A DNA stretch of 32,000 nucleotides from Mucisphaera calidilacus. GTDB lineage: Bacteria; Planctomycetota; Phycisphaerae; Phycisphaerales; Phycisphaeraceae. Of this stretch, positions 1,683 through 9,953 are shown piece by piece. The position numbers were made by a program, and so were the translations under genes. Numbering within the stretch: the first letter of the stretch is position 1; each line of letters starts with the position of its first letter. The stretch spans positions 930,001-962,000 of the forward strand of contig NZ_CP036280.1 of assembly GCF_007748075.1 (NCBI RefSeq), read 5' to 3'. The notes beneath the pieces were generated by a model. That model saw nothing but the letters and a program-made list of their open reading frames with translations. It had not been told where the DNA came from and ran no database searches.

Positions 1683-1711
1683 TTGACGCGGGGTCGTGGG
1701 CGGTCATACTT
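1683..1711 (+). promoter_or_regulatory. candidate sigma70-like promoter for the leader/DAHP synthase transcript
   Basis: TTGACG (1683..1688), 17-nt spacer, ATACTT (1706..1711); alternatively a 16-nt spacer with CATACT. This would place the transcription start almost on the leader ATG at 1717. Weak -10, no experimental support. Confidence 0.25.
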
Positions 1712-1716
1712 CGGGC

Positions 1717-1788
1717 ATGGACATGGTCTTTAGCTGGTTTTTTGGCTATTGGTTTACGCGGCGAGCGGCCGTGGCGGTGTCCATCTAA
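1717..1788 (+). CDS. candidate regulatory leader peptide MDMVFSWFFGYWFTRRAAVAVSI (aromatic-rich)
   Basis: 23-codon ORF, ATG to TAA. Codons 5-13 are F S W F F G Y W F, using TTT x4, TAT and TGG x2. It lies between a gene stop (1649) and the DAHP synthase start (1969) and is followed by a terminator. No clear Shine-Dalgarno. Confidence 0.5.
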   Translation: MDMVFSWFFGYWFTRRAAVAVSI

Positions 1789-1816
1789 CCCTTGATTGAT
1801 TTAAGGCATTGACGGA

Positions 1817-1849
1817 CCCCGACGCGGCTGAGCGTCGGGGTTTTTTGTT
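1817..1849 (+). terminator. intrinsic terminator, candidate attenuator
   Basis: CCCCGACGC (1817..1825) pairs perfectly with GCGTCGGGG (1832..1840) across the 6-nt loop GGCTGA, followed by TTTTTTGTT. It lies 120 nt upstream of the aroF ATG. Confidence 0.8.
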
Positions 1850-1968
1850 GTCATTGGGCCTGGCGTTCAGGTTCAAAGCCCCGACGAGTCTGATTCTGCC
1901 GATAGAGGTACTTCGTTGGCAGATCGGTCAGCCCCGGCTGGAAAGCCTGAAAGCAGAAGGAAACGGCC

Positions 1969-3009
1969 ATGATCATTGTGATGCGTGCGGGAGCCCGTCA
2001 GGAACAGGTGGATCACGTGTGTGAACGGGTACGCGAGATGGGATTGCAGGATCACCCGATTGTCGGGACGGACCTGACGGTCGTCGCGGTGATCGGCGAT
2101 GAGAACAAGGTGGACGGCGGTGTGATCGAGCAGCTGCCCGGCGTTGACCGCGTGATGCGGGTGATGGCGAAGTACAAGATGGCGGCGTTGGCGGCGAAGG
2201 ACGGGCGGCGGAGCGAGATCGAGATCGCGCCGGGTGTGTCGTTCGGCGGGACGCTGGTGCCGGTGATCGCGGGGCCGTGTTCGGTGGAGAGTGCGGAGCA
2301 CATCCTGGCGTGTGCGCAGGCGGTGAAGGCGTCGGGGGCGCACGCGCTGCGTGGCGGCGCGTTCAAGCCTCGGACGAATCCTTATGCCTTCCAGGGTCAT
2401 GGCGAGGAGGGGCTGAAGATGCTGGCGGCGGCGCGTGAGGCGACGGGGTTGCCGATCGTGACGGAGGTTCTGACGCCCTCGGAGGTGGGTCTGGTTTCGG
2501 AGTACGCGGACTGTCTGCAGATCGGGACGCGTAACGCGCAGAACTTCAAGCTGCTGCAGGCGTGCGGGCAGCAGCCCAAGCCGGTGCTGTACAAGCGTGG
2601 GATGGCGATGACGATCGAGGAGTATCTGCAAGCGGCGGAGTACATTCTTGCGGCGGGTAACCCGAACGTGATCCTGTGCGAGCGTGGGATCCGGACGTTC
2701 GAGGACCACACGCGGAACACGCTGTCGCTGTCGGCGGTTCCCGAGCTTCATCAGCGGACGCACCTGCCGGTGGTGATCGATCCGAGTCACGGGACGGGTC
2801 ATGCGCGGCTGGTGCCGGACATGGCGCGGGCGGCGATGGCGGCGGGGGCGGACGGCCTGGCGATCGAGATGCACCCGGACCCGGAGCACGCGATGACGGA
2901 CGGTGCGCAGTCGATCACGCCCGAGGCGTTGACGGATCTGATCGTGAGTCTTGCGCGTGTGGCGGCGGCGGTGGACCGGACGTGCGGGGCTGAGCGGGAG
3001 GTGGTCTGA
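1969..3009 (+). CDS. aroF: 3-deoxy-7-phosphoheptulonate (DAHP) synthase, type I-beta, with N-terminal ferredoxin-like regulatory domain
   Basis: 346 aa. The core ([59 protein letters not shown]) matches the KDO8P/DAHP I-beta family. The ~70-aa N-terminal extension MIIVMRAG...VDRVMRV resembles the Thermotoga-type regulatory domain. AAGGAA lies upstream of the ATG. Confidence 0.92.
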
Positions 3010-3076: not shown

Positions 3077-3322
3077 ATGATGAACAAGATCACCATACCC
3101 ATCCCGGACGATCTCGCAGAGGATCAGGTTCGTGAGCTTGAGGGGTATCTATCGGATCAGGTTCGTGCGATCACCGGCGAGTTTGAGGGTGTGGCGATCA
3201 CCGCCACGGCTCGGGAGGAGATCGCGCGACGGATTCGAGCCGGGCTGGAAGCGTTGCGTGCGGGCGAGGTGTTCACGTCGGCCGAGGCGAGGGCGCGGCT
3301 GGAGAAGAAGCTACGGGGTTAA
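3077..3322 (+). CDS. putative type II antitoxin, partner of the ParE-like toxin
   Basis: 81 aa, acidic/helical. It ends 9 nt before the toxin gene, the classic antitoxin-toxin order. The antitoxin family is not recognised from sequence alone. Confidence 0.5.
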   Translation: MMNKITIPIPDDLAEDQVRELEGYLSDQVRAITGEFEGVAITATAREEIARRIRAGLEALRAGEVFTSAEARARLEKKLRG

Positions 3323-3331
3323 GTCGGGTCG

Positions 3332-3634
3332 ATGACGTATCGCGTTGTTTATTCCGGGCCGTTCCAGCGCGACCTTGAGTGTCACGTGGATTATCTGCTG
3401 GGGTCATCCGTTTCGATTGAAACGATCGAGGCCTGGTACAGCCGGTTGTACTCCCGGCTGGAGGGTCTTGAGGTCTGGCCGCGTTTGTATCCGGTGGATG
3501 AGCGTTATTCGGAGATGGTTGGGCATGAGGTCCGGAAGATCAATTTCGGTGACTACCTGATGTTCTATTGTGTTGAGGAGTCCGCTCGTCGGGTGATCCT
3601 GTTGGCTTTTTATCACGGGGCACGGCAGCGGTGA
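3332..3634 (+). CDS. ParE/RelE-family type II toxin
   Basis: 100 aa. The pattern YRVVYS..FQRDLECHVDYL...WP..YP....EVRKINFGDYLMFYCVEE..RRVILLAFYHGAR follows the ParE fold signature (N-terminal hairpin helices, then a Y-x-I/L-x-Y..V-x-I-L-x-hydrophobic-x-H C-terminal sheet). Confidence 0.65.
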   Translation: MTYRVVYSGPFQRDLECHVDYLLGSSVSIETIEAWYSRLYSRLEGLEVWPRLYPVDERYSEMVGHEVRKINFGDYLMFYCVEESARRVILLAFYHGARQR

Positions 3635-4140: not shown

Positions 4141-5058
4141 TCAATACATCAGCACATCGACGATGCCGGCTGCGCCGAGGATGAGGCTGATGATTCCGTT
4201 CAGGGTGAAGAAGGCGACGTCGAGGTGCTTGGTGTGGCTGCGTGCAACGATGGCGTGCTCGGTGATGAGCAGGGCGAGGGCGATGCCTGAGGCGAGTGCG
4301 AAGAAGGCGCCGAGGTGGATGGCGGTGGCGGCGAGGATGACGAGCAGGGCGGCGGCTGTGAGGTGGAGGGTTCGGCTGAGCCAGAGCGCGGCGGTGAGGC
4401 CGAGGCGGGCGGGGATGGAGAAGATGTTGTGCTGGCGGTCGTGTTCGAGGTCGGCGAGGGCGTAGAGGATGTCGAAGCCGGCGACCCAGCCGAGGACGAA
4501 GCCGCTGAGGAGCCAGGTGTCGGGGCGGGTGAGGAAGGCGGGTTCGATGGCGAGCGCGGCGGCGAGGGGGCTGAGTCCGAGGGCGACGCCTAGCACGAGG
4601 TGGCAGAGGGCGGTGAAGCGTTTGGTGAGGCTGTAGAGGGCGAGGACGAGGAGGACGGCGGGGCTGAGGAGCAGTGGCCATGGGTTGTTGAGAAGGAGGA
4701 AGCCGGCGGCGCCGAGGATGAGCAGGGCGGCGGAGGCGAGGCAGGCGACGAGCATCTGCGGGCGGGTGACACGGCCTGCGGGGAGGGCCCGTCCGGCGGT
4801 GCGGGGGTTGTCGGCGTCGAGGCGTGCGTCGGCCCAGCGGTTGAAGGTCATTGCGAAGGTTCGTGCGGCGACCATGCAGAAGAGGATGAGCGCCCACTCG
4901 GCGGCGGAGGGGAGGCGGTCGACGCCTGCGGCGGCGAGGAACATGGCGAGCAGGGCGAAGGGTAGTGCGAAAACGGTGTGGCTGAGCTTGATGTCGGCGG
5001 CGATGGCGTGGAGGAGCGCAAGGGGGCTGCGTGGTGCGGGGGCGGAGTCAGTCGTCAT
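4141..5058 (-). CDS. UbiA-family aromatic prenyltransferase (4-hydroxybenzoate polyprenyltransferase-like / MqnP-like)
   Basis: 305 aa, polytopic. It carries NRWADARLDADNPRTAGRALPAG (first Asp-rich motif region) and DILYALADLEHDR (second motif). It overlaps the ubiX stop by 11 nt. Confidence 0.85.
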   Translation of the reverse strand: MTTDSAPAPRSPLALLHAIAADIKLSHTVFALPFALLAMFLAAAGVDRLPSAAEWALILFCMVAARTFAMTFNRWADARLDADNPRTAGRALPAGRVTRPQMLVACLASAALLILGAAGFLLLNNPWPLLLSPAVLLVLALYSLTKRFTALCHLVLGVALGLSPLAAALAIEPAFLTRPDTWLLSGFVLGWVAGFDILYALADLEHDRQHNIFSIPARLGLTAALWLSRTLHLTAAALLVILAATAIHLGAFFALASGIALALLITEHAIVARSHTKHLDVAFFTLNGIISLILGAAGIVDVLMY

Positions 5059-5713
5059 GGCCGTCGTCTTCCCGGGCGAGCTGGTCGGCCCATCGGACGT
5101 TAAGGTCGTGCTCGATGTCGAGGTGGTCGAGGCAGCGTCCGACGATGAAGTCGATGATGGCGTCGATGGTCTTGGGGAGCATGTAGAAGCCGGGGTTGGC
5201 GGGGAGCAGGAGTGCGCCGGCTTCGGTGGCGGTTTTCATGTTGTTGATATCGATGAGGTTGAGGGGTGTTTCGCGGTGGACGAGGATGAGTTTGCGGCGC
5301 TCTTTGAGGGTGACGTGTGCGGCGCGGTGGATGAGGTTCTGGCTGATGCCGTTGGCGATGGCCCCGAGGGAGTTGGAGGAGCAGGGGATGACGATCATGC
5401 CGTCGTGGCGGAAGGAGCCGGAGGCGATGGTGGCACCGACGTCGCGGTATGCGTGGAGCCTGATGCGTCCGCCGGTGGCGGGGTTTTCGGTGGTGGTGGC
5501 GTTGAGGGTGACGGCGTCGGGTCCGGCGAGGGCCTGGAGGTCGATGGTTTCCATGCCCAGTTCGTCGTGGAGCAGGCGTCGGCCCAGGGGTGAGACGACG
5601 AGGTGGACCTCGCGGCCGGCGGCGACGGCGTGTTGGACGAGGCGGGCGGCGTAGGGTGCTCCGCTGGCGCCGGTGATGCCGACGACGATCCGGGATGTGG
5701 TGTTGCTGGGCAC
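5048..5713 (-). CDS. ubiX: flavin prenyltransferase UbiX
   Basis: 221 aa. IVVGITGASGAPYAARL, VHLVVSP, MIVIPCSSNSLGAIANG and LILVHRETPL are typical of the UbiX/Pad1 family. GTG start at 5713. Confidence 0.9.
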   Translation of the reverse strand: MPSNTTSRIVVGITGASGAPYAARLVQHAVAAGREVHLVVSPLGRRLLHDELGMETIDLQALAGPDAVTLNATTTENPATGGRIRLHAYRDVGATIASGSFRHDGMIVIPCSSNSLGAIANGISQNLIHRAAHVTLKERRKLILVHRETPLNLIDINNMKTATEAGALLLPANPGFYMLPKTIDAIIDFIVGRCLDHLDIEHDLNVRWADQLAREDDGHDD

Positions 5714-5758: not shown

Positions 5759-6559
5759 CTAGCGCTTCTCTTTGACGATGGTGACGGTGATGCCTTGCTG
5801 GGTTGTGCTGATGTCGGTCACGCGGACGTCGGTTTTGCGGTCCATGGGGAAGACGGGGTCGAAGGACTTGCCGTTAAAGGCGTCGGCGAGTGTTTTGGCG
5901 CTGCTGGAGGCATTCTTTTTGGCGTACTCGCGGAGTCTCAGGCTGATGTTGTTGCTGGGCATTCGGAGGTGTCCGGCCTCGATGCCGGTGACGGTGACGG
6001 TGGCGGTGTCATGCGTGTTGATCTGGAGTTTGAGGAAGACGGAGACCCATCCGGAGATGCCGTCGCTGGACATTCTGAAGGCGAGTGCGAGTCTGCCGTC
6101 CTTGTGGGTGAGCAGGTAGTCGCGGGCGAACTGCGGCAGTTGACCGCCCTGGTTGCGGACCCAGCTGTCGAGTCGCTGGCTGAGCCAGGCGTTGATCTCG
6201 TCGTAGGACATCGTGATGGTCTGGGGGGCGTTCTCGTCGTCTTCGGAGCTGTTGCGGGCGAGGCTGAGGTCGGGGCTGGTGCCGGCCGAGGCGGTGCCCT
6301 GGAGCAGTTGCCGTGTGCTGTTATCGATGGAACTGGCGTTGTCGCCAAGGCGGTTGGTGAATCGCTGCTCGAGGCTTTCGGCGATCTGGCTGAGTTTGGG
6401 CTGGGGTGTCTGCTCGATGAAGGCCTGTGCCTGTCGTACGTGTCCGGGCGTGGCCAGGAGCAGGTAGGCGAGGACGCCAACGGTGGCGAGTCCGAGGGCC
6501 AGCAGTCCGAGTGTGATTTTGACGATCGGGATGCGCCGCTTCCTGCTCGGTTCAGACAT
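5759..6559 (-). CDS. membrane-anchored hypothetical protein
   Basis: I trimmed the track ORF (5759..6715) to the ATG at 6559, which has AAGGAA 6 nt upstream and removes the overlap with the upstream gene. MSEPSRKRRIPIVKITLGLLALGLATVGVLAYLLL looks like a single N-terminal TM anchor. No family recognised. Confidence 0.6.
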   Translation of the reverse strand: MSEPSRKRRIPIVKITLGLLALGLATVGVLAYLLLATPGHVRQAQAFIEQTPQPKLSQIAESLEQRFTNRLGDNASSIDNSTRQLLQGTASAGTSPDLSLARNSSEDDENAPQTITMSYDEINAWLSQRLDSWVRNQGGQLPQFARDYLLTHKDGRLALAFRMSSDGISGWVSVFLKLQINTHDTATVTVTGIEAGHLRMPSNNISLRLREYAKKNASSSAKTLADAFNGKSFDPVFPMDRKTDVRVTDISTTQQGITVTIVKEKR

Positions 6560-6590
6560 GACGTTTCCTTGTGCCGGGAGAGGGTCGGGT

Positions 6591-7346
6591 TCAGGTCGTC
6601 GTCTTGCTATCGGACGTTGTGTGGGTCCGCTGGAGTAGCCTGGCGTATTCGTAGAGCCGTTGGTGGAGCAACTCGTGGTCGGGTATGGCGTCGACGGCCT
6701 GGGCGATCTGGTCAAGGCTGGCTGGTGTGGCGGGGGGGGTGTTGAGGGCGGTGAGTGCGGCGTTGCCGAGGGTTTCGCAGGCGGCCTGGAACCACGTCGA
6801 TCCGGTGACGGCGTGTTTGTGGCGGGGTTCGATCCAGGTGTCGATGGGGATGTCGCCGGGCGGGGCGGGGATTTCGGCGGTCAGGTTGTTGTCGCCCCAG
6901 CTGCGTGCGACGCGGCTGGGTCCGGAGCCGCCGGCGAGGAGGAGTTCTACCCAGAGTCGGCGTTGGCGGCAGGTTTCCCAGATGATTCGGGTGTCGTCGG
7001 GGGTGAGTGGGGCGGTGACGACGATCTGTGCGGCGCAGATTTCGCCGGGTTGTTTGCCCGGGTGGGTGAAGGGCTTGGGGCCGGGCGGTGGGCCCTGTGA
7101 TGCGAGGTCGTCGAGGAGGGCGTCGCGGTCGTGTGTGCCGATGAGGAGCCAGCCCTCGGCCGCGATGGTGCGGCGCATGCGTCGGCATTCCTGGAGGGGC
7201 ATCAGGATGCGTGCGTAGTCGTCCCAGGCTTCGCTGCTTCGGGCGAGGTCGCGTGCCTGCTCGCAGAGGGACTCGGTGGTGAGGTAGTCGCGTTCGAGCA
7301 GGGCTTGGCTCGCGCGGTTCATGAGGTCGGTGAGGGATGTATTCAC
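6591..7346 (-). CDS. hypothetical protein
   Basis: 251 aa, GTG start. Codon bias matches the neighbours and it is tightly spaced with the flanking minus-strand genes. No family recognised. Confidence 0.55.
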   Translation of the reverse strand: MNTSLTDLMNRASQALLERDYLTTESLCEQARDLARSSEAWDDYARILMPLQECRRMRRTIAAEGWLLIGTHDRDALLDDLASQGPPPGPKPFTHPGKQPGEICAAQIVVTAPLTPDDTRIIWETCRQRRLWVELLLAGGSGPSRVARSWGDNNLTAEIPAPPGDIPIDTWIEPRHKHAVTGSTWFQAACETLGNAALTALNTPPATPASLDQIAQAVDAIPDHELLHQRLYEYARLLQRTHTTSDSKTTT

Positions 7347-9867: not shown

Positions 9868-9953
9868 GCCCGGGTGGCGAAACTGGCAGACGCGCCACGT
9901 TGAGGTCGTGGTGGGAGTAAAATCCCTTGGAGGTTCGAGTCCTCTCCCGGGCA
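9868..9953 (+). tRNA. tRNA-Leu (anticodon GAG), class II, no encoded CCA
   Basis: Acceptor GCCCGGG/CCCGGGC, D-arm GCG-AAACTGGCAGA-CGC, anticodon stem CCACG/CGTGG with loop TTGAGGT. Variable arm TGGGAGTAAAATCCCTT, T-arm GGAGG-TTCGAGT-CCTCT, discriminator A. Confidence 0.9.

Follow-up and report, generated by a model that had tools for sequence, protein, structure and literature searches.

A conserved candidate leader-peptide attenuator with a mixed Phe/Tyr/Trp codon run upstream of the DAHP synthase gene aroF in Mucisphaera calidilacus and other Phycisphaeraceae

In the trpL, pheL, and hisL leaders of Proteobacteria (Yanofsky 1981; PMC3082878), an open reading frame (ORF) with regulatory codons precedes mutually exclusive 2:3 and 3:4 helices, and a ribosome that reaches the stop codon masks region 2. 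Each of these classical leaders senses one amino acid, and each combines a Shine-Dalgarno sequence with a clear 1:2 hairpin, by which a lack of translation leads to super-attenuation. Attenuation of a gene for 3-deoxy-D-arabino-heptulosonate 7-phosphate (DAHP) synthase is established in the aroR-aroF unit of Corynebacterium glutamicum (Neshat et al. 2014), where the leader contains Phe-Tyr-Phe (PMC11802643, PMC4046766) and, according to PMC11802643, Phe limitation alone is effective. In Acholeplasma, the uORFC-13-1 motif, a comparative-genomics prediction (Brewer et al. 2021, PMC8632094), is a conserved, aroF-exclusive upstream ORF with Phe codons just before an intrinsic terminator. For Planctomycetes, PMC4833913 gives only statistics on the distance between leader genes and structural genes, and a search of the literature on attenuation in Planctomycetes or Phycisphaerae found no report of such a system. 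The present analysis concerns a stretch of 32,000 nucleotides (the window) of the planctomycete Mucisphaera calidilacus (contig NZ_CP036280.1, positions 930,001 to 962,000), in which the gap ahead of aroF contains a small ORF rich in aromatic codons, followed by a terminator hairpin. A reading of the sequence alone, here called the original prediction, had proposed ribosome-mediated attenuation by this element, in which the terminator and an antiterminator exclude each other. Comparison with related genomes supports that proposal through conservation and through covariation in both helices, and we consider it very probable that the unit is a leader-peptide transcription attenuator that controls aroF.

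The regulatory-codon ORF, the exclusive helices, and the masking of region 2 at the stop codon are shared with the proteobacterial leaders. In contrast to these, the Phycisphaeraceae run mixes codons for Phe, Tyr, and Trp, region 1 is weak, read-through is the predicted outcome for untranslated RNA, and the ORF is probably translated from the very 5′ end of its mRNA (a leaderless start). With aroR-aroF of C. glutamicum the unit shares a short leader ORF with aromatic codons, a stall that increases read-through, and the same pathway step; it differs in that the aroR leader has three aromatic codons, whereas the Phycisphaeraceae leaders have 5 to 8 in nine codons and include Trp in 61 of 67 cases, and in that the enzyme is of type I-beta with a ferredoxin-like domain. 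The likeness to aroR is best viewed as a functional analogy, homology not being expected between different phyla. The combination of a Phe-codon upstream ORF and an intrinsic terminator ahead of aroF is common to the Acholeplasma motif, but uORFC-13-1 includes a ribosome-binding site as well as a U-run that specifies one or more Phe residues (PMC8632094), whereas the leader described here has no room for a ribosome-binding site and carries a mixed run; the two also differ in lineage, Mollicutes as opposed to Phycisphaerae.

All features of the leader region lie on the plus strand, and the sequence description in the original prediction matches the window at all coordinates. The gap between the upstream stop codon (1649) and the aroF start (1969) is 319 nucleotides, as the ORF list confirms. 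It contains a promoter-like site that the consensus scan identifies as TTGACG-16-CATACT (1683–1710; −35 box at 1683–1688, −10 box at 1705–1710), one of two such sites in 6 kb, and the −10 box ends 6 nucleotides before the leader ATG. The leader ORF, MDMVFSWFFGYWFTRRAAVAVSI, occupies 1717–1788 and consists of 23 codons followed by a TAA at 1786. Inspection of the sequence bears out that seven of the nine codons at 1729–1755 (F S W F F G Y W F) are aromatic, with four TTT, one TAT, and two TGG, whereas aroF has five TTC and no TTT, together with four TAC and two TAT; the patch is AT-rich, with a GC content of 0.33 as compared with 0.645 for the window. Region 2, the 5′ strand of the putative antiterminator (GCCGTGGCGGTGTCC, 1768–1782), lies within the last leader codons and, as claimed, can pair with 1814–1828 at 13 of 15 positions, including one G-U, when read on the alignment described below (A1). 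Region 3 (1814–1828) serves both as the terminator 5′ arm (stem 1814–1825) and as the antiterminator 3′ strand, and region 4 (1832–1849) comprises the terminator 3′ arm (1832–1843) and the T tract TTTTTTGTT (1841–1849). The hairpin that had been noted at 1817–1825 and 1832–1840, followed by TTTTTTGTT, is real, and the terminator scan extends its stem to 12 pairs (1814–1843). A possible region 1, CGCGGC (1757–1762), pairs with 1768–1773 in the minimum-free-energy fold; this pairing is weak and optional. The read-through 5′ untranslated region of aroF would cover 1850–1968 and has the Shine-Dalgarno-like motif GAAGGAAA ahead of the ATG, and aroF itself extends from 1969 to 3009.

In the mechanism that we favor, transcription from the promoter at 1683–1710 would start on the leader ATG (1717) or a few nucleotides from it, and a ribosome would immediately begin to translate the 23-codon ORF, the 5′ end probably being leaderless. 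When charged tRNA-Phe, tRNA-Tyr, or tRNA-Trp is scarce, the ribosome would stall within the nine-codon run (1729–1755), leaving region 2 uncovered and free to pair with region 3 once the latter has been made; this 2:3 pairing would block the terminator, and RNA polymerase would continue into aroF. When all three charged tRNAs are plentiful, the ribosome would move at least three codons beyond the run, toward the TAA at 1786, and cover region 2, so that the 3:4 terminator hairpin would form and an RNA of about 130 nucleotides would be released. Every feature of an attenuator that can be tested computationally is present except a clear region 1.

The gene product is the enzyme that had been described. 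The protein matches PF00793 and, at its N terminus, PF18152, the ferredoxin-like regulatory domain, and aligns over its full length with Protein Data Bank entries 1rzm/3pg9 (E = 4.6e-88), so its description as a type I-beta DAHP synthase with an N-terminal ferredoxin-like domain is correct. It is 87% identical to a homologue in a Mucisphaera genome, and its 80 best genomic relatives all belong to Phycisphaeraceae/Phycisphaerales of the Planctomycetota; with the window counted, they make up the comparison set of 81 Phycisphaeraceae aroF loci used throughout. Conservation among relatives of the small ORF, aromatic run, antiterminator strand, and terminator was a check set beforehand, and the leader-terminator unit is present at 71 of the 81 loci. 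A leader ORF of 17–32 amino acids, mostly 22–25, with 4 to 8 aromatic residues in nine was found at 68 of the 81, MNERSFFFGYFWFDRTHTALGTE being typical. The aromatic leader ORF far exceeds chance: of 3,476 ATG-initiated ORFs of 15–35 amino acids on both strands of the 81 loci, 64 have at least 6 aromatic residues in nine, and all 64 lie on the aroF strand no more than 400 nucleotides upstream of aroF, whereas elsewhere in these loci just six ORFs of this size reach 5 in nine. A covariance model of the leader, built from 65 relatives with the window left out, matched the window over its full length at 1732–1849 (77.2 bits, E = 1.6e-19), the sole full-length match in the 32 kb, and also found divergent copies at L040 and L071 and a copy clipped by a contig end at L042. 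The genes upstream of the unit, at the 60 loci with a recognizable neighbor, fall into 41 unrelated protein clusters and are on the opposite strand in 33, from which it follows that the leader unit belongs to aroF. The distance from the leader stop to aroF is 80–270 nucleotides among relatives, and the segment between terminator and aroF is so variable in length that no further conserved element is expected there. Metagenomes were also scanned with a DNA pattern independent of aroF (TGGTTT-N13-CCGYGNNGG-N28-55-CCYGAYGC), which matched at least 120 stretches; among the matches listed, 118 are chance and two (L099 and L196) are genuine, both upstream of aroF. The pattern is too degenerate for a database of that size, and the scan therefore says nothing about such leaders before other genes.

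Folding of the RNA at 1700–1860, which had been proposed as a check, gave −66.8 kcal/mol (z = −3.35), and in the window the antiterminator duplex (−23.8 kcal/mol) and the terminator (−23.7 kcal/mol) are about equal in energy. The duplex compares with −17.4 ± 3.1 kcal/mol for shuffles. A terminator of −12 to −29 kcal/mol is found in every unit, starting 18–45 nucleotides past the leader stop. Pairing was counted on A1, an alignment of 66 sequences. In the terminator helix (columns 121–131 with 141–151), 92% of the cells are paired as compared with 34–50% in slid controls, and two-sided changes occur at 7 of the 11 pairs; RNAalifold recovers this helix independently. In the antiterminator helix (columns 59–70 with 123–134), the corresponding values are 81.8% and 33–42%, with two-sided changes at 10 of 12 pairs. 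The expected compensatory stem changes are thus found in relatives for both helices. Pair 64–129 of the antiterminator, for example, is G-C in 54 sequences and A-U in 9, and a terminator arm containing GATGC is accompanied by GCATC in the leader, and GACAC by GTGTC. The folding energy of the whole leader is unremarkable across loci (mean z-score +0.26), the signal being confined to the 2:3 and 3:4 helices. Nucleotide conservation of the unit on A1 is high, and the spacer between leader stop and terminator is not conserved. In a clade of five loci (L006, L028, L045, L047, and L067), the usual terminator ACCCCGACGC...GCGTCGGGGT is exchanged for AGCCCGGC...GCCGGG; the leaders of this clade carry CCCGGCC repeats, and their duplex to the new arm still reaches −19 to −24 kcal/mol. 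In this clade, the switch appears to have been reconstructed and not lost. Separately, in the minimum-free-energy fold of the window, the 5′ end of the leader, AUGGACAUGG (1717–1727), pairs with the last codons, GGUGUCCAU (1776–1786), and in the closest relative, L001, about five of these pairs appear possible by eye. Such a helix could occlude a leaderless start codon or could represent a long-range region 1.

Several features suggest that the leader is decoded. They were sought in entropies by codon position, a test of open frames having been rejected because the leader frame was chosen for being open. Within the aromatic run the entropies at codon positions 1, 2, and 3 are 0.95, 1.49, and 1.24, the first position (T) being the most conserved and the second (T/A/G) the most variable, which indicates that aromatic codons are selected as a class, in contrast to a fixed sequence or an ordinary protein. 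The eight codons past the run have no such periodicity (1.45, 1.48, and 1.41), as fits constraint by RNA pairing. Phe occurs in all 67 leaders, Tyr in 63, and Trp in 61. Of the Phe codons, 69% are TTT in leaders as compared with 15% in aroF (Fisher p = 1e-43), and of the Tyr codons, 58% are TAT in leaders as compared with 18% in aroF; we infer that TTT and TAT are the more slowly decoded codons. The rare-codon bias and the conservation by codon class give indirect support to translation of the leader ORF and to a response of read-through to charged tRNA. All three amino acids would presumably count. As observations on the run itself, its final Trp-Phe (TGGTTT) is near-invariant, and in 28 of 65 leaders the run is broken by a Gly codon (as in FFFGYFWF) at codon −4 from the last aromatic one, which in the window is GGC at 1744–1746. 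Of 67 units, 62 have a promoter of the form TTGAC(N)-16/17-(C/G/A)ATACT ahead of the leader, with a spacer of 16–17 nucleotides in 56 of these 62 and with 6–10 nucleotides between the end of the −10 hexamer and the start codon in 59. This spacing predicts a transcript that starts at or a few nucleotides from the ATG (1717 in the window) and leaves no room for a Shine-Dalgarno sequence, in agreement with the earlier suggestion that the leader lacks one and that transcription starts almost on the ATG. Translation of the leader ORF thus probably starts on a leaderless mRNA.

The positions of the helices relative to the leader codons are compatible with the proposed control. The distance from the last aromatic codon to the start of region 2 is 12 nucleotides in 47 of 66 loci, and that from the end of region 2 to the leader stop is 6 nucleotides in 45 of 66. 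In the folding model, the RNA was masked to 12–13 nucleotides beyond the A-site codon and the remainder was folded. With the ribosome on the last aromatic codon and region 4 not yet made, the 5′ arm of the terminator is sequestered in all 66 loci; once the ribosome stands at the stop codon, 61 of the 66 form the terminator. The spacings and the model therefore agree with the geometry that had been proposed, in which a ribosome at the stop codon masks region 2 and a stalled ribosome frees it. When the A site is slid along the leader, with codons numbered from the last aromatic one, at least 94% of loci form the antiterminator at positions −8 to +2; the share drops to 27% at +3 and is no more than 11% from +4 to the stop. 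The modeled switch point is sharp and lies between codons +2 and +3 past the run. The aromatic run ends just ahead of it, so a stall at any codon of the run should give read-through.

Some results weigh against an attenuator of this kind or restrict how it could work. The case for leaderless translation comes from the promoter-to-ATG spacing, and the ribosome footprint of 12–13 nucleotides 3′ of the A-site codon is an assumption of the folding model. Without a ribosome and before region 4 is made, the RNA favors the antiterminator at equilibrium in 59 of 66 loci, so that the default without translation would be read-through, unlike that of Escherichia coli trp. In the complete stalled transcript, the terminator remains the equilibrium structure in 43 of 66 loci, and the switch must therefore be kinetic and co-transcriptional, as in other attenuators. 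The antiterminator duplexes formed within a locus average −21.2 kcal/mol as compared with −13.4 kcal/mol with shuffled leaders and −18.8 ± 0.3 kcal/mol across loci, and none of 5,000 permutations reaches the observed value, but these shuffle and permutation controls keep shared ancestry and so give support short of formal proof. For a classical 1:2 anti-antiterminator hairpin the sequences give no clear support, and none is claimed: local hairpins of region 1 type, which pair the four codons after the run with region 2, are present in most minimum-free-energy folds (mean −9.0 kcal/mol, mean z-score −0.9) but are weak, and their register varies between clades. Nor does the folding model need region 1, the ribosome itself apparently acting as the anti-antiterminator. 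Finally, the covariance model has no match at ten related aroF loci (L011, L014, L021, L031, L039, L046, L049, L053, L060, and L074), and the element is therefore dispensable.

Other explanations account for parts of these data. A stand-alone gene for a small RNA of about 130 nucleotides that acts in trans, with the ORF untranslated or irrelevant and no read-through control of aroF, would have its own promoter, a strong terminator, and high nucleotide conservation, as are found here, and trans-acting RNAs derived from attenuators exist, an example being rnTrpL of Sinorhizobium (PMC6614838). We regard this as very unlikely because the unit, regardless of the neighbors, invariably lies immediately before aroF and on its strand, the aromatic run is conserved by codon class and not by sequence, the positions of the ATG and stop are fixed relative to the helices, the alternative helix covaries with the terminator arm, and no promoter for aroF is seen past the terminator in the window. 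Under the attenuator reading, an abundant terminated RNA of about 130 nucleotides might nonetheless also act in trans. Less likely again is a nascent peptide that senses a free ligand instead of tRNA charging and controls the terminator by arrest, in the manner of TnaC with tryptophan. The fairly conserved motif F-x-x-F-W-F-(T/D)-R, with its near-invariant Trp-Phe at the end of the run, is what a peptide sensor might display; however, Phe, Tyr, and Trp are interchangeable, which fits codon sensing better than a specific contact in the tunnel, the codons after the run lack coding periodicity and are explained by RNA pairing, and the rare-codon bias points to decoding speed. Ligand-induced arrest would, moreover, raise expression under abundance, the wrong sign for a biosynthetic gene.

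We give lower credence still to a TRAP-like protein or a small-molecule riboswitch that selects between terminator and antiterminator, with the ORF incidental. A terminator-antiterminator pair by itself fits any effector, but there is no Rfam match, T-box and riboswitches included; no conserved structured aptamer lies between the promoter and region 2, the segment occupied by the AT-rich aromatic run with its conservation by codon class; and the spacer from leader stop to terminator is not conserved. The least credible explanation is that the hairpin is the intrinsic terminator of the upstream gene (795–1649) and that the aromatic ORF is a chance frame. That gene is on the same strand, ends 164 nucleotides ahead of the hairpin, and is followed by no other terminator-like site, as this explanation would have it, yet the conserved promoter sits between the gene and the hairpin, the leader and terminator stay with aroF despite the 41 neighbor clusters and the 33 of 60 neighbors on the opposite strand, and the location of all 64 strongly aromatic small ORFs upstream of aroF argues against a chance frame. 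The variant that the original prediction itself had named as an alternative, in which the hairpin merely ends the upstream gene and aroF is transcribed from a promoter downstream of 1850, is excluded as a general explanation, and the consensus scan of the window found no promoter-like site between the terminator and aroF.

A ribosome-mediated attenuator is a textbook mechanism and its use on aroF has precedent, but the unit lies outside any described sequence family. At gathering thresholds, Rfam gave tRNA as the sole match, with no leader family (Phe_leader, Trp_leader, or others), T-box, or riboswitch, and at E ≤ 10 on 1640–1975 it gave only sub-threshold chance matches, mostly to small-RNA models that contain terminators. 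New here are the lineage and the size and quality of the comparative support, as well as a run that mixes Phe, Tyr, and Trp codons and ends just ahead of a sharp switch point, a start that is probably leaderless, and an apparent lack of region 1. The leader ORFs of C. glutamicum are probably leaderless too. The combined proposal, that this is the first family of leader-peptide attenuators documented in Planctomycetota, that it is leaderless with a mixed run, and that it uses the ribosome as sole anti-antiterminator with no region 1, is put forward tentatively, its holding in every part being a little less probable than its failing in one.

The surroundings of aroF in the window include several other features. 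The upstream gene (795–1649) encodes a 284-residue protein with a weak DUF4886 match and, by eye, an N-terminal signal sequence; it is common only to the window and the closest relative, L001. It is preceded by a tRNA-Leu gene (anticodon TAG, 683–766) with a promoter-like TTAGCA-17-TAGAAT just upstream (644–672), and a second tRNA-Leu gene (GAG) is located at 9868–9953. Directly 3′ of aroF, at 3077–3634, are two small ORFs of 81 and 100 residues, the second of which encodes a ParE-family toxin (PF05016), whereas the first has no Pfam match but has the position and size of an antitoxin; the segment is probably a type II toxin-antitoxin insertion. On the minus strand, at 4141–5713, genes for a UbiA prenyltransferase (PF01040) and a flavoprotein (PF02441), which we read as UbiX-like, overlap by 11 nucleotides (5048–5058) and are probably an operon for prenylated flavin mononucleotide or quinone-type chemistry. 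A 318-residue ORF at 5759–6715, also on the minus strand, has no Pfam match. Among the loci that lack the attenuator, aroF of L053 begins 28 nucleotides after the upstream gene and is probably in an operon with it; L039, L046, and L049 have in common a conserved upstream ORF that ends about 80 nucleotides before aroF; and the sequence directly upstream of aroF in L011 resembles a tRNA gene by eye.

To our knowledge, gene regulation in Planctomycetota is almost unstudied. The unit described here adds a cis-regulatory family of Rfam grade that numbers over 70 representatives and has covarying pairs in both of its competing helices, and it locates a promoter, a predicted transcription start, and a small ORF overlooked by annotation pipelines. 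With it, Phycisphaeraceae would control entry into aromatic biosynthesis through transcription in addition to allostery by way of the ferredoxin-like domain, and, if the proposal is true, a single run of Phe, Tyr, and Trp codons integrates, at the pathway's committed step, the supply of all three amino acids. The Thermotoga enzyme of the same type is allosterically inhibited by Tyr and Phe. As the leaders nearly always contain Trp and the type of enzyme is one inhibited by Tyr and Phe, the attenuator may add the missing Trp signal. The spacing of promoter and ATG, in turn, predicts efficient leaderless initiation. The cell plan of planctomycetes has been debated, and attenuation works only with ribosomes close behind RNA polymerase, so the conservation of the unit argues for coupled transcription and translation in these bacteria and, if the attenuator is real, would constitute genomic evidence that this coupling is tight in Planctomycetota.

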